From: a virus
Taxonomy: Duplodnaviria; Heunggongvirae; Uroviricota; Caudoviricetes
Strand: one strand, 5' to 3'
DNA: 15,862 nucleotides
Virus record (IMG/VR): IMGVR_UViG_2609460218_000002
Within the stretch, counting starts at the first letter, position 1. Each line of letters opens with the position of its first letter. Under the pieces are notes generated by a model. It did no database searches, was not told the origin of the DNA, and saw only the letters and a program-made list of their open reading frames with translations. Made by a program: the position numbers and the translations under genes. Positions 1 through 8,219 of the stretch are shown here, piece by piece.

Positions 1-1
1 A

Positions 2-247
2 GCGTTACGGGACAAAGAACGCTTTGACGGTGAAATTTTTGACCTGGACATCTCGCTGGACCATGTTGAAGGTGCCGCGCTGGAGTTTTATGAGGCAGCA
101 GCCAGAAGGAGCATCAGACAGGTCTTCCTGGATGTTGCTGCCGGGTTATGTGAAGGGGACGAGCTGTTGCCAGAAACGCGACCCTGTTCAGAGGCTCGGT
201 ATACCATAAAAATTAACAGTTCAGATAACTCGATTACGGGTTGTTAG
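2..247 (+). CDS. Hypothetical soluble acidic protein, 5' end outside window (possibly YdfR/DUF1327-like)
   Basis: Frame 2 is open from the window edge to TAG at 245-247 (82 codons) and reads as protein-like (ALRDKERFDGEIFDLDISLDHVEGAALEFYEAAARRSIRQVF...). The track ORF 24..209 is in another frame and looks off-frame (W/C-rich). It sits just upstream of the endolysin, where Qin carries ydfR; the family assignment is from memory. Confidence 0.4.
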   Translation, partial: ALRDKERFDGEIFDLDISLDHVEGAALEFYEAAARRSIRQVFLDVAAGLCEGDELLPETRPCSEARYTIKINSSDNSITGC

Positions 248-302
248 CTTTTTGCAGTTGGCTTTCCAGTATCTTTCATTGGTAGCATCCTGATAAATAT
301 CC

Positions 303-1330
<1,028 letters not shown>

Positions 1331-1512
1331 GGTAATATTAAATCGGAACATTTACATCGCGGAATGTAAAATTTAAATAAAAAGGACTCTTCCATGAGCC
1401 AAAATTCCTGAAATCTTAAGGGTAAGATAAAAGGTCTTAATCAGAATGACACGTTTTATTAATAAATAAAGCTATTCTTTCATTGCTGTGTTTTTCTTTA
1501 CAAAAGTAATCC

Positions 1513-1541
1513 TTGCTATGGGTGGTTAATCATGCGTTAAT
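1513..1541 (+). promoter_or_regulatory. Putative sigma70 promoter of the cold-shock gene (-35 TTGCTA, 17-bp spacer, -10 GTTAAT)
   Basis: TTGCTA at 1513-1518 and GTTAAT at 1536-1541, with an AT-rich UP-like tract upstream (about 1440-1512). The predicted start near 1548 leaves a leader of about 145 nt, as expected for CspA-family cold-shock genes. A TATAAT at 1585-1590 is an alternative. Confidence 0.4.
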
Positions 1542-1692
1542 GGTGTTCTGGTTTGTTACAAATTTATCTGAAGCAGTCATTGTTATAATTTTATTATTTG
1601 TACCTCTTGAGATTTCCTTGTTGGTTTTTCTCTCTGATANTTTTTTTCGGACCATTCTGCCCAAGGNCTAATTTCTTCAAAAGGTAATAATT

Positions 1693-1905
1693 ATGTCTAA
1701 CAAAATGACTGGTTTAGTGAAATGGTTTAACCCTGAAAAAGGTTTTGGTTTCATCACGCCGAAAGATGGCAGCAAAGATGTGTTTGTCCATTTCTCAGCA
1801 ATTCAGAGCAACGATTTCAAAACATTAACTGAGAATCAGGAAGTTGAATTTGGTATTGAGAACGGACCTAAAGGTCCTGCCGCTGTTCATGTAGTGGCGC
1901 TTTGA
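1693..1905 (+). CDS. cspI: Cold-shock protein, CspA family (CspI-like)
   Basis: 70 aa. RNP1 (KGFGFI) and RNP2 (VFVHF) cold-shock-domain motifs. SD AAGG 8 nt upstream of ATG. Long AT-rich upstream leader. Gene order Rz - csp - small ORFs - gnsB - ydfO matches Qin, hence cspI rather than another csp paralog. Confidence 0.9.
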
Positions 1906-1993
1906 GGTAGACAATATTACAAACCATATTCACTTTAGATGCCCGTGTTGTCATGGTTCCCAGTATAGAACATCATCTTTTGATGTTTCTGAC

Positions 1994-2104
1994 ATGAATC
2001 CTTTCGGGGCAAAATGTATCTTTTGTAAATCAATGATGATTACATTTGATAATATTTCACAATACTTAAATGCCAGCCGTCTGTCGTTGGATTTAAAAAA
2101 GTGA
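1994..2104 (+). CDS. Small zinc-ribbon-like ORF (CxxC...CxxC); upstream extension likely
   Basis: The frame is open from 1895 to TGA at 2102-2104 and reads ...HFRCPCCHGSQYRTSSFDVSDMNPFGAKCIFCKSMMITFDNISQYLNASRLSLDLKK. Two CxxC pairs about 20 residues apart. The first in-frame ATG (1994) lies after the first CPCC motif and there is no in-frame ATG/GTG/TTG upstream, so the true start is unclear. The ORF ends 7 nt before an intrinsic terminator. Below the track size cut-off. Confidence 0.3.
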   Translation: MNPFGAKCIFCKSMMITFDNISQYLNASRLSLDLKK

Positions 2105-2110
2105 AAATGA

Positions 2111-2132
2111 AGGCTCCTTCGGGAGCTTTTTT
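2111..2132 (+). terminator. Rho-independent terminator ending the cspI transcription unit
   Basis: Stem GCTCC (2113-2117) / GGAGC (2122-2126) with a UUCG tetraloop, extendable by A-U and G-U pairs, followed by TTTTTT (2127-2132). Confidence 0.6.
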
Positions 2133-2176
2133 GCTTGGTGTCTATTCGATGGATACTCACATACTACGGTAACATC

Positions 2177-2407
2177 ATGAAAAAAATCATAGNTTTTTTT
2201 AACTCTGAACCAGCAGTGGTAGTGCCAGCGATGACTGGAGTTAACACCATCATGCGTGAATATCCAAATGGCGAAAAAACACACCTTACTGTAATGGCCG
2301 CAGGGTTTCCATCTCTGACCGGAGATCATAAAGTCATTTATGTAGCCGCGGATCGACATGTTACTTCAGAAGAAATTCTGGAAGCAGCAATAAGGCTCTT
2401 GAGTTGA
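2177..2407 (+). CDS. Hypothetical 76-aa protein (possibly YnfN/YmcE-like, partner of GnsB)
   Basis: Track ORF 2135..2407 begins with TTG inside the terminator T-run, so the ATG at 2177 (MKKII...) is preferred. Protein-like composition. The minus-strand track ORF 2093..2359 is W/C/H-rich and judged spurious. Contains one N (2193). Confidence 0.5.
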   Translation: MKKIIXFFNSEPAVVVPAMTGVNTIMREYPNGEKTHLTVMAAGFPSLTGDHKVIYVAADRHVTSEEILEAAIRLLS

Positions 2408-2501
2408 TTTGATGCTATTGCATTGATAATTCAGGAAAATTCTCTTTGTCTGTTTGTGTAAAATTTAGACTATCGTATGTTGATTATTGCGATGTTTCAT
2501 C

Positions 2502-2530
2502 TTATCTTTTACACGTTTGCACCATATAAT
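2502..2530 (+). promoter_or_regulatory. Putative promoter upstream of the gnsB-like gene (-10 TATAAT at 2525-2530)
   Basis: Perfect TATAAT at 2525-2530. Candidate -35 elements are weak (TTATCT at 2502-2507 with 17-bp spacing; TTTACA at 2508-2513 with too-short spacing). Confidence 0.3.
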
Positions 2531-2578
2531 CGACTTACTGTGTAACTGGAAAGTCATAACAGACTAAAAGAGGAAATG

Positions 2579-2752
2579 ATGAATATTGAAAACTTAAAAA
2601 CAAAAGCAGAAGCAGATATTTCTGAATATATAACAAAAAAAATTATTGAACTTAAGAAAAAGACCGGGAAAGAAGTTACCAGTATTCAGTTTACCGCACG
2701 GGAAAAAATGACGGGTCTTGAAAGCTATGATGTCAAGATTAATTTAATCTGA
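2579..2752 (+). CDS. gnsB: GnsA/GnsB-family small protein
   Basis: 57 aa: MNIENLKTKAEADISEYITKKIIELKKKTGKEVTSIQFTAREKMTGLESYDVKINLI. Tandem ATGs at 2576 and 2579, with AGAGGA SD best spaced for 2579. I recognise the GnsA/GnsB family by its conserved C-terminal REKMTGLESYDVKI motif. Not in the ORF track (below size cut-off). Confidence 0.8.
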   Translation: MNIENLKTKAEADISEYITKKIIELKKKTGKEVTSIQFTAREKMTGLESYDVKINLI

Positions 2753-2781
2753 TGTATTCAATAATAAAATTTATCCATAAA

Positions 2782-2805
2782 CCTCGTTTTTACGGGGTTT
2801 TGTTA
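2782..2805 (+). terminator. Putative rho-independent terminator after the gnsB-like gene
   Basis: Stem CCTCGT (2782-2787) / ACGGGG (2792-2797) with one G-U pair, loop TTTT, then a T-rich tract. Confidence 0.5.
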
Positions 2806-2866
2806 TATTTGAATGGTTCCGAATATCTAAATCACAATTGTTGATGGTTTTTATTAAACCAATGCA

Positions 2867-2895
2867 GTCCGGCTCAGGAGTGAGAGAAGCCGGAC
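2867..2895 (-). terminator. Hairpin directly after the ydfO-like stop (candidate terminator for the minus-strand unit)
   Basis: 8-bp perfect inverted repeat GTCCGGCT (2867-2874) / AGCCGGAC (2888-2895) with a 13-nt loop, 8 nt beyond the minus-strand stop codon. The downstream U-tract on the minus strand is weak. Confidence 0.4.
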
Positions 2896-2903
2896 GTTAT
2901 GGT

Positions 2904-3314
2904 TTAGCGTGGTAAGATCTGTGTAGTTTTCTGGATGCTTTCAGTAAATAGTAATGAATTATCAAAGGTATAGTAATATCTTTTTTGTTCGTGGATATTT
3001 GTAACCCACCGAAAAACTCCTGCTTTAGCAAGGTTTCTTCTGTATTCCTGAAATGTGATCTCTCTGGATTTCAGCTTATTAGAGGTCGTTTCTATAAGAT
3101 GCCTATCCTTTGAAAATTTGACAGACACAATGTTTTTTAGGCCCTTTAATAACACTGTATTATCATTTTTTAATACAATATGAACATTCTCTGTGGCTAA
3201 ATAGTAAATGTAATGTGAGACATTGTGACGTTTTAGCTCAGAATAAAACCATTGATAGTTTAAATCGTTTCGAACTTTATCAAATATTTGTTTAAAAATG
3301 ACTACCTGATCCAT
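2904..3314 (-). CDS. ydfO: YdfO-like protein (DUF1398 family), function unknown
   Basis: Track ORF 2904..3329 (141 aa). A GGAAGG SD sits 7 nt upstream of the second ATG (3314), so a 136-aa product is preferred. The sequence ([40 protein letters not shown]...) matches my recollection of E. coli YdfO from Qin. Confidence 0.8.
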
Positions 3315-3371
3315 AGATAAACCTTCCATGTGATATGAGGGGGCGTAGTCTGCACGATTATCTAAATTTCT

Positions 3372-3605
3372 TCAATCTGGTCTGACCTGTTTTCTGAGCA
3401 ATTCAGTAATGTCACTCTTTTCTTTGTTTGCTTCAGAAGAAACTCTTTTTTCTGAGCACAGTCTCCGGCGGCAGGCTTCAATGACCCAGGCTGAGAAATT
3501 CCCGGACCCTTTTTGCTCAAGAGCGATGTTAATTTGTTCAATCATTTGGTTAGGAAAGCGGATGTTGCGGGTTGTTGTTCTGCGGGTTCTGTTCTTCGTT
3601 GACAT
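3372..3605 (-). CDS. DUF3950-family small DNA-binding protein with predicted ribbon-helix-helix fold (YlcI/YnfO-like)
   Basis: 77 aa. Basic N-terminus (MSTKNRTRRTTTRNIRF) followed by a strand-helix-helix pattern (NIRFPNQ / MIEQINIALEQ / NFSAWVIEACRRRL), consistent with an Arc/CopG-like RHH fold. Co-oriented with and 57 bp upstream of the ydfO-like gene. Matches my recollection of YlcI/YnfO proteins found next to nohD/nohQ in K-12 prophages. Confidence 0.8.
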   Translation of the reverse strand: MSTKNRTRRTTTRNIRFPNQMIEQINIALEQKGSGNFSAWVIEACRRRLCSEKRVSSEANKEKSDITELLRKQVRPD

Positions 3606-3699
3606 GAGGTTGTCCCGTATTCAGTGTCGCTGATTTGTATTGTCTGAAGTTGTTTTTACGTTAAGTTGATGCAGATCAATTAATACGATATCTGCGTCA

Positions 3700-3990
3700 T
3701 AATTGATTATTTGACGTGGTTTGATTGCGTAGATGCACGTTGTGACATGCAGATGATAATTATTATCATTTTGCGGGTCCTTTCCGGCGATCCGACAGGT
3801 TACGGGGCGGCGCCTCGCGGGTTTTCGCTATTTATGAAAATTTTCCGGTTTAAGGCATTTCCGTTCTTCTTCGTCGTAACTTAATGTTTTTATTTAAAAT
3901 ACCCCCTGAAAAGAAAGGAAACGACAGGTGCTGAAAACGAGCTTTTGGGCCTCTGTCGTTTCCTTTCTCTGTTTTTGGCCGTGGAATGAA
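3700..3990 (+). other. cos site of lambda type (cosQ, cosN, cosB with Nu1-binding R elements)
   Basis: 3640-3803 matches the lambda right end (...GGGTCCTTTCCGGCGATCCGACAGGTTACG). cosN at about 3805-3815 reads GGGCGGCG-CCT against the lambda cohesive end GGGCGGCGACCT. Downstream, AAAGGAAACGACAG (3914-3927) and its inverted copy CTGTCGTTTCCTTT (3953-3966) correspond to the Nu1-binding R3/R2 elements. A 17-bp palindrome ATGATAATTATTATCAT lies at 3752-3768. The internal cos shows prophage or concatemer topology. Confidence 0.85.
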
Positions 3991-3992
3991 CA

Positions 3993-4512
3993 ATGGAAGT
4001 CAACAAAAAGCAGCTGGCTGACATTTTCGGTGCGAGTATCCGTACCATTCAGAACTGGCAGGAACAGGGAATGCCCGTTCTGCGAGGCGGTGGCAAGGGT
4101 AATGAGGTGCTTTATGACTCTGCCGCCGTTATAAGATGGTATGCCGAAAGGGATGCTGAAATTGAGAACGAAAAGCTGCGCCGGGAAGTTGAAGAACTGC
4201 GGCAGGCCAGCGAGACAGATCTCCAGCCAGGGACTATTGAGTACGAACGCCATCGACTTACGCGTGCGCAGGCCGACGCACAGGAGCTGAAAAATGCCAG
4301 AGACTCCGCTGAAGTGGTGGAAACCGCATTCTGTACTTTCGTGCTGTCGCGGATCGCAGGTGAAATTGCCAGTATTCTCGACGGGATCCCCCTGTCGGTG
4401 CAGCGGCGTTTTCCGGAACTGGAAAACCGACATGTTGATTTCCTGAAACGGGATATCATCAAAGCCATGAACAAAGCAGCCGCGCTGGATGAACTGATAC
4501 CGGGGTTGCTGA

Positions 4513-4538
<26 letters not shown>
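3993..4538 (+). CDS. nu1: Terminase small subunit Nu1
   Basis: 181 aa, near-identical to lambda gpNu1 as I recall it (MEVNKKQLADIFGASIRTIQNWQEQGMPVLRGGGKGNEV...; N-terminal HTH DNA-binding domain), with only a few substitutions. Directly downstream of cosB. Confidence 0.97.

Positions 4539-8219
<3,681 letters not shown>

Follow-up and report, generated by a model that had tools for sequence, protein, structure and literature searches.

Does the pair of small genes at positions 2177-2752 of IMG/VR virus record IMGVR_UViG_2609460218_000002 constitute a toxin-antitoxin (TA) module? The record (15,862 nucleotides; this whole stretch is called the window below) corresponds to the late region of a lambdoid prophage of the Qin type in Escherichia coli. 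An earlier note, made from the letters only, described a 76-amino-acid (aa) open reading frame (ORF) followed by a 57-aa GnsA/GnsB-family gene, next to a cold-shock gene. It proposed a TA-like module resembling the chromosomal ymcE-gnsA pair. The coordinates, the Gns family (PF08178) and the cold-shock gene (cspI; PF00313) were all confirmed, and the interval runs exactly from the start of ynfN to the stop of gnsB. Both small genes are already catalogued, in more than 2,000 complete E. coli genomes, as ynfN and gnsB of Qin-type prophages, and in this respect the finding is largely ordinary. Our analysis makes it probable that ynfN and gnsB are two separately regulated, already known accessory genes of a cold-adaptation block and not a TA module.

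Gene names were transferred onto the window from the RefSeq annotation of one matching record (NZ_CP026085.1). More than 1,500 complete E. coli genomes match window positions 1600-2900 at 99% identity or more. The features on which the argument depends are the following.

1547-1932, plus strand: cspI leader and coding region, matched by the Rfam model of the cspA thermoregulator RNA (RF01766; 107.9 bits, gathering score 78; E = 1e-27).
1693-1905, plus strand: cspI, cold-shock protein, 70 aa (PF00313, E = 2e-31; RefSeq annotation).
1916-2104, plus strand: ynfQ, YmcF-like small CxxC protein, 62 aa, non-ATG start (PF23641, E = 7e-32; RefSeq annotation; 65% identical to YmcF).
2107-2172, plus strand: ynfR, 21-aa ORF (RefSeq annotation).
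2110-2132, plus strand: terminator-like hairpin (GGCTCC-TTCG-GGAGC and a T-run) 3' of ynfQ, within the ynfR ORF (-13 kcal/mol, z-score -2.3).
2177-2407, plus strand: ynfN, ATG start, 76 codons and stop (RefSeq ynfN, WP_000720962.1).
2193-2200, plus strand: T-run of 8 positions in ynfN codons 6-8, its first base an N in the window (alignment with MG1655).
2480-2530, plus strand: gnsB promoter-like block, with TTGATTATTG at 2480-2489, TATCTT at 2503-2508 and TATAAT at 2525-2530 (alignments of gns upstream regions).
2568-2573, plus strand: Shine-Dalgarno sequence AAGAGG of gnsB, 5 nt 5' of ATG 2579 (read from the sequence; AGAGG is kept in all gns copies).
2579-2752, plus strand: gnsB, 57-aa GnsA/GnsB-family protein (PF08178, E = 3e-35; RefSeq gnsB).
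2779-2810, plus strand: intrinsic terminator of gnsB, 9-bp stem and T-rich tail (-14.1 kcal/mol, z-score -3.0).

We read cspI-ynfQ-ynfR-ynfN, followed by gnsB, as the accessory ("moron") block between the lysis and terminase genes of Qin-type lambdoid prophages. Both ynfN and gnsB lie downstream of cspI. The cspA thermoregulator match appears to mark the start of a cold-inducible transcript, which most likely also carries ynfN. Since no convincing promoter was found between the hairpin at 2110-2132 and ynfN, and since the ynfR stop codon (2170-2172) lies only 4 nt before the ynfN ATG, ynfN would be the last gene of the cspI transcript and depend on read-through of this hairpin. An equivalent hairpin is also present 3' of ymcF in K-12 and in Citrobacter copies. 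The proximity of the ynfR stop to the ynfN start could permit translational coupling in E. coli; the ynfR ORF is not present in the Citrobacter copy that was aligned. SPA-tagged YnfR protein has been detected and is strongly cold-induced (PMC6001520). Translation of the 21-aa YnfR crosses the terminator hairpin of ynfQ, and residues 10-20 of YmcE are the translation of the equivalent K-12 hairpin.

Published expression data are in line with this arrangement. After AZT treatment, cspI, ynfQ and ynfN were upregulated 6.5-, 5.9- and 5.8-fold, and the values for their SspA dependence were 38, 42 and 51, respectively (PMC11228462). In four comparisons from long-term stationary phase, the log2 changes were 2.61, 5.82, 3.76 and 2.01 for cspI and 2.01, 5.59, 3.92 and 2.16 for ynfN, but 1.40, not significant, -1.67 and -1.40 for gnsB, i.e., of opposite sign in two of the four (PMC7406224). 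Thus, in these two published RNA-seq tables, the expression of ynfN tracks that of cspI, while that of gnsB does not.

For gnsB, the promoter-like block at 2480-2530, the strong Shine-Dalgarno sequence and the gene's own terminator at 2779-2810 argue for a unit of its own, and gnsB is probably expressed mainly from its own promoter, the exact position of which is a prediction. Most of the examined copies of gnsA, gnsB and Citrobacter gns have a TTGAT(T/A)ATTG motif 99-117 nt 5' of the start codon, followed after approximately 17 nt by a TATA-like hexamer; the corresponding window elements are TTGATT (2480-2485) and TATCTT (2503-2508). The motif is degenerate or absent in four Citrobacter loci (L022, L025, L027 and L028) and absent 5' of a distant Gns gene in a stress island (L112/L115, described below). 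The upstream block of gns occurs whatever lies further upstream. The earlier note had pointed to a 171-bp gap with a TATAAT as a sign of separate transcription. The spacer is indeed 171 bp long with TATAAT at 2525-2530, and separate transcription of ynfN and gnsB is the better-supported reading, given the gns upstream block and the published expression. As the key promoter element, however, TATAAT was rejected, since it is found in the E. coli copy only and not in Citrobacter, while the conserved element lies at 2480-2508.

An Rfam E-value scan of positions 1-5000 detected only the cspA thermoregulator at cspI and no known RNA element in the 171-bp spacer. If transcribed whole from upstream, the spacer is predicted to fold (-38.4 kcal/mol, z-score -2.6), with CUCUUUGUCUG (2442-2452) pairing with the Shine-Dalgarno region of gnsB (2560-2573). 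Transcripts from the gnsB promoter would not contain the CUCUUUGUCUG segment. It is possible that this modeled fold keeps read-through RNA from making GnsB.

The second line of evidence is the distribution of the two families. Among 5,426 complete E. coli genomes, 5,418 contain gnsA-like DNA and 2,119 the ynfN-gnsB unit, and none of the 40 evenly spaced E. coli matches listed covered just one of ynfN and gnsB. Since all of the E. coli ynfN-gnsB copies are at least 92% identical, they count as one lineage. Both genes were found in seven sequenced phages, and phage PHB10 has a YnfN relative only. One Citrobacter prophage lineage retains csp-ymcF-ynfN-gns with a spacer of 203-208 bp. Adjacency of ynfN and gnsB was thus confined to Qin-type prophages and this Citrobacter lineage, and in six of the other distinct contexts Gns was not adjacent to YnfN. 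YnfN relatives were found in the following settings.

PHB10 and L123-125: beside csp and a CxxC mini-protein, without gns.
L014, L015 and L121: two YnfN paralogues flanking csp, with no adjacent Gns.
L120: beside a YnaE-family cold-shock gene, with no adjacent Gns.
L116-119: between phage lysis and terminase genes, with csp and gns both absent.
L112-115: behind an HSP20 gene and 2.6 kb before a Gns gene.

Conversely, no YnfN accompanies Gns at any gnsA locus, in Citrobacter L025 or L027, or at the chromosomal loci L131-134 (csp-ymcF-214 bp-gns). In Citrobacter murliniae (L028), ynfN carries an in-frame stop and gns is intact. In the co-occurrence check that the earlier note called for, the genes are neighbors in the two prophage lineages and apart in most lineages sampled. 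In the first three settings listed, the cold-shock neighbors of YnfN comprise a cold-shock domain (CSD) gene, a CxxC mini-protein or a gene of the YnaE family; L116-119 has none of the three. Because the recurring neighbors are csp, ynaE and genes for small CxxC proteins and not gns, YnfN may be read as another member of a cold/stress-response set.

Next to csp and YnfN relatives, small zinc-ribbon proteins of the CxxC...CxxC type (YmcF, YnfU-like and an unnamed 54-aa ORF) are found repeatedly, for example at L004 2188-2430 (minus strand), L123 3431-3595 and window 1916-2104, which suggests a csp/zinc-ribbon/YnfN trio. The stress island of L112-L115 (Logan metagenome contigs) comprises a TehB-like gene, DUF1869, PmrD, HSP20, the YnfN relative, two ORFs of unknown function, a Mn catalase and a Gns-family gene, and is the only non-prophage context with both families in one neighborhood.

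The proposed likeness to the cspG-ymcE-gnsA neighborhood held at the flanks and failed in the middle. In blastn comparisons, window 1689-2052 aligned with cspG-ymcF at 74% DNA identity and window 2561-2753 with gnsA at 73%, and nothing aligned between these blocks (508 bp in the window versus 227 bp at cspG-gnsA). The suggestion that the 76-aa ORF is a YmcE/YnfN-type partner was likewise half right: it is YnfN, but YnfN and YmcE gave no BLASTP alignment with E ≤ 100 and an hhalign probability of 1.6%. Homology to YmcE is ruled out by BLASTP, hhalign and the DNA alignment, and the shared length of 76 aa is, by these comparisons, a coincidence. The window locus is paralogous to cspG-gnsA at its flanks only, with ynfN (together with ynfR) as a different filling.

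The view that GnsA is a toxin countered by YmcE is found in the literature and in Pfam and RefSeq names. We also analyzed ymcE itself. The K-12 ymcE ORF (L002 2348-2578) spans the ymcF terminator and the promoter-like block and leader of gnsA. In a sample of 60 E. coli genomes spaced evenly over 5,415 matches, ymcE was intact in 59, all at 98% DNA identity or more, and the sixtieth genome gave a partial match. Three loci from sister lineages were examined (at about 2780-3010; Escherichia sp. E1V33, E. whittamii and a divergent "E. coli" lineage). Their DNA was still alignable, but ymcE was disrupted in each: by lack of the ATG and a frameshift in L029, by lack of the ATG and a stop in L030, and by a frameshift in L031. 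Furthermore, no ymcE-like ORF was found in the Citrobacter chromosomal csp-ymcF-gns copies examined. The reported antitoxin YmcE may thus not be a conserved protein. Its disruption in sister lineages and absence in Citrobacter weaken the basis for the addiction-module toxin label.

YnfN, by comparison with its homologues, is a conserved protein over its full length. Relatives at 52-76% identity are all 75-76 aa long and share the N-terminal motif MKKVIVFFN, and Met26, the start used in MG1655, is not conserved among them. Between the window and four Citrobacter copies, the ratio of nonsynonymous to synonymous substitution rates (dN/dS) of ynfN was 0.06-0.16 in the three computable comparisons; synonymous sites were saturated in the fourth, where the ratio was not computable, and near saturation in the others. 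dN was similarly low in codons 1-25 (0.12-0.19) and codons 26-76 (0.13-0.15), and dN/dS for codons 1-25 was 0.08 where computable. We conclude that ynfN is a real gene under purifying selection across all 76 codons. For gnsB, dN/dS was 0.04-0.07 in all four comparisons. Neither is a chance ORF, in view of the RefSeq annotation and low dN/dS of both.

In MG1655, ynfN is annotated as a 51-aa gene (1637954-1638109) that starts at the equivalent of window ATG 2252, and in other E. coli genomes the Prokaryotic Genome Annotation Pipeline (PGAP) annotates 76 aa. This short annotation is due to a one-base deletion in the T-run: MG1655 has seven T (L003, at about 3660) where other ynfN copies have eight (window 2193-2200), which puts the N-terminus out of frame, and tblastn of YnfN against MG1655 aligned only residues 7-76. 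Since the window has an N and seven T at 2193-2200, it carries the intact form. The K-12 reference entry b1551 is therefore a frameshifted remnant of the 76-aa protein.

An AlphaFold2 model of YnfN (predicted local distance difference test [pLDDT] 87) has residues 2-4 and 16-18 as strands and predicts a soluble protein that consists mostly of beta-strands and has a helix at its C-terminus. The profile searches suggested for both proteins were successful for GnsB and only partly so for YnfN, which matched phrog_3425 (E = 4e-53, 76/76 positions; labeled "unknown function" in PHROGs) but had no match in Pfam, NCBIfam, PADLOC or PDB sequences. Homologues of the 76-aa ORF do exist. The family is small: an exhaustive hidden Markov model search over 1.84 billion representatives found only 45 clusters (50% identity). 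A separate search for YnfN relatives gave 60 related clusters, and scanning IMG/VR with the YnfN alignment yielded 80 identical copies but no further diversity. Judged by these sequences, YnfN is a selected protein of a small enterobacterial and phage family.

GnsB matched PF08178 over its full length (E = 3.1e-35, residues 1-54/54) as well as the solved GnsA structures 4XO1 and 4XO2 (E = 5e-20 for 4XO2). The window protein is 100% identical to RefSeq GnsB and to K-12 GnsB (ydfY) and 65-67% identical to GnsA; a start at the alternative ATG 2576 would lengthen it to 58 aa. The Gns family comprises 188 clusters at 90% identity, of which the named ones are almost all from Escherichia or Citrobacter. 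According to papers that refer to the work of Sugai in 2001 and 2004, overexpression of gnsA or gnsB reportedly increases unsaturated fatty acids and is said to suppress fabA6(Ts) and the cold-sensitive secG null mutation. Published work further describes suppression of a ppGpp-deficient fadR mutant and of lapC190. Based on these overexpression phenotypes, GnsB is best read as a putative prophage-supplied modulator of host membrane lipid composition.

Several observations weigh against two independent genes. In E. coli and the one Citrobacter prophage lineage, gnsB follows ynfN without exception, and the distant YnfN relative 2.6 kb from a Gns gene in the chromosomal stress island makes some functional link possible. 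The gnsB promoter block matches the consensus weakly, at 8 of 12 positions, and a consensus scanner gave no call, while ynfN and gnsB have no visible terminator between them, which makes read-through into gnsB possible. Moreover, the expression comparison consists of two published tables from K-12 only, in which ynfN is frameshifted, and the 51-aa K-12 remnant could retain activity, which would weaken the argument from a natural knockout.

The alternative that survives best, which we consider unlikely, is that YnfN and GnsB would be separately transcribed yet act in one cold-adaptation pathway, with their adjacency functional but not of the TA kind. YnfN might, for example, tune the lipid-remodeling effect of GnsB or act with CspI. 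The order csp-ymcF-ynfN-gns has been kept between E. coli and Citrobacter prophages despite saturated synonymous sites, relatives of both proteins share an unrelated chromosomal island with HSP20 and Mn catalase, and both families are tied to cold or stress genes. However, Gns is missing from most distinct YnfN contexts and YnfN from most Gns loci, the expression profiles of ynfN and gnsB differ, and a common accessory slot in a prophage can reflect inheritance rather than function.

The TA hypothesis itself fared worse and is, in our judgment, very improbable. On this view GnsB would be a toxin that inhibits growth, and in the prophage copy YmcE would have given way to YnfN as a non-homologous antitoxin. 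Replacement by non-homologous antitoxins does occur in TA biology, and Pfam and RefSeq names call the GnsA/GnsB family a TA toxin. Both the toxin label of GnsA and its pairing with YmcE reportedly go back to Wei et al. 2015. Papers that cite this work list ymcE-gnsA as a type II TA pair; in one survey the partner of GnsAB_toxin was always upstream, as ynfN is in all Qin-type and many Citrobacter prophage copies, and one preprint describes more persisters and lower ATP upon overexpression of gnsA or gnsB. The literature on Gns toxicity is mixed: Wei 2015 is cited for GnsA toxicity, and yet gnsA and gnsB plasmids rescue growth. In place of a tight operon under one promoter, we found a long spacer with a promoter-like block and divergent published expression. 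In place of partners that co-occur across independent lineages, the families are apart in most lineages sampled. Loss of the supposed antitoxin appears to be tolerated, as indicated by the ynfN stop beside intact gns in C. murliniae and by the T7 frameshift in MG1655, where the 51-aa remnant might still be produced, and YnfN is unrelated to YmcE, the reported antitoxin of GnsA. Thus, the module proposed in the earlier note is not upheld: the families are mostly apart, ynfN has been lost beside intact gns, and its expression follows cspI and not gnsB. Taken together, the comparative and expression evidence argues against ynfN-gnsB as a TA pair.

A variant, which we regard as no less improbable, is that YnfN is a lineage-specific neutralizer or modulator of GnsB that entered csp-ymcF-gns in prophages, the GnsA-YmcE pairing being an annotation artifact in view of the position of ymcE over the ymcF terminator and the gnsA promoter and leader and its disruption in sister Escherichia species. 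If this were true, the "addiction module toxin" label would need revising, and YnfN, with a fold without known relatives, would be the only real partner candidate of the Gns family.

Finally, that the 76-aa ORF is unreal, or real only in the C-terminal 51 aa of the K-12 annotation, can be dismissed: despite that short annotation, the missing Pfam or NCBIfam family and the lack of an evident Shine-Dalgarno sequence 5' of ATG 2177, a spurious or short ORF is ruled out in practice by the homologue alignment and dN/dS, the short annotation follows from the one-base deletion, and the confident structure model places strands in the very N-terminus that would be lacking.

The finding itself adds little, since both genes are catalogued and the phenotype of the GnsB family is published, but three by-products may be of use to annotators and to those who study small proteins or cold shock. 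Full-length YnfN has 76 aa, and the K-12 entry describes a frameshifted remnant. With its small family, lack of a matching solved fold and recurrence beside cold-shock genes, YnfN is a candidate member of the cold-shock response. The database name "addiction module toxin" for GnsA/GnsB rests on ymcE, an ORF without conservation beyond E. coli proper that overlies regulatory DNA, and automated TA surveys that include the GnsA/GnsB family probably overcount.

The wider surroundings, with annotation mapped from NZ_CP026085.1 (L001), are the following.

303-836: rrrQ.
833-1330: rzpQ.
Opposite strand: ydfO and ynfO.
From 3993: nohA and the large terminase gene.

N bases are scattered over the window (1641, 1668, 2193 and others), one of them in ynfN codon 6 and one in rzpQ, and these change no conclusion. 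NZ_CP026085.1 is labeled DH5alpha (4.83 Mb), but unlike MG1655 it contains an intact-looking Qin-type prophage with terminase and portal genes and a T8 ynfN, so that the strain label looks doubtful.

Compared with known systems, ynfN-gnsB shares with classical type II TA operons (relBE, mazEF) two small adjacent genes on one strand of a mobile element. It differs from them in its long spacer with its own promoter-like block and in that the two families occur apart, the upstream gene being lost while the downstream gene is kept, and possibly also in the lack of a recognizable DNA-binding antitoxin fold in YnfN. The chromosomal cspG-ymcF-ymcE-gnsA locus is closer: its csp, YmcF-like and gns genes are paralogous to those of the window, and both loci have a terminator hairpin after the YmcF-like gene and a TTGATTATTG block 5' of gns. 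However, MG1655 ymcE overlaps both of its neighbors and overlies the terminator and the gnsA promoter-like block, while ynfN is a separate gene 171 bp from gnsB. The chromosomal csp-ymcF-gns loci of Citrobacter and relatives (L025, L027 and L131-134) have the same trio, terminator, promoter-like block and leader, but neither YnfN nor an intact YmcE-like ORF between ymcF and gns; they appear to represent the module in its minimal form. Phages 2H10, Tritos, mEp460 and others have a gene order identical to that of the window. The closest counterpart is the K-12 Qin cryptic prophage, in which cspI-ynfQ-ynfR-ynfN-gnsB (b1552, b4724, b4749, b1551 and b1550) occur in identical order at 99.8% DNA identity. 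It is distinguished from the window by the T7 ynfN with its 51-aa annotation, where the window has the intact T8 allele encoding 76 aa, and by the terminase and head genes, which the window prophage retains and MG1655 Qin has lost.
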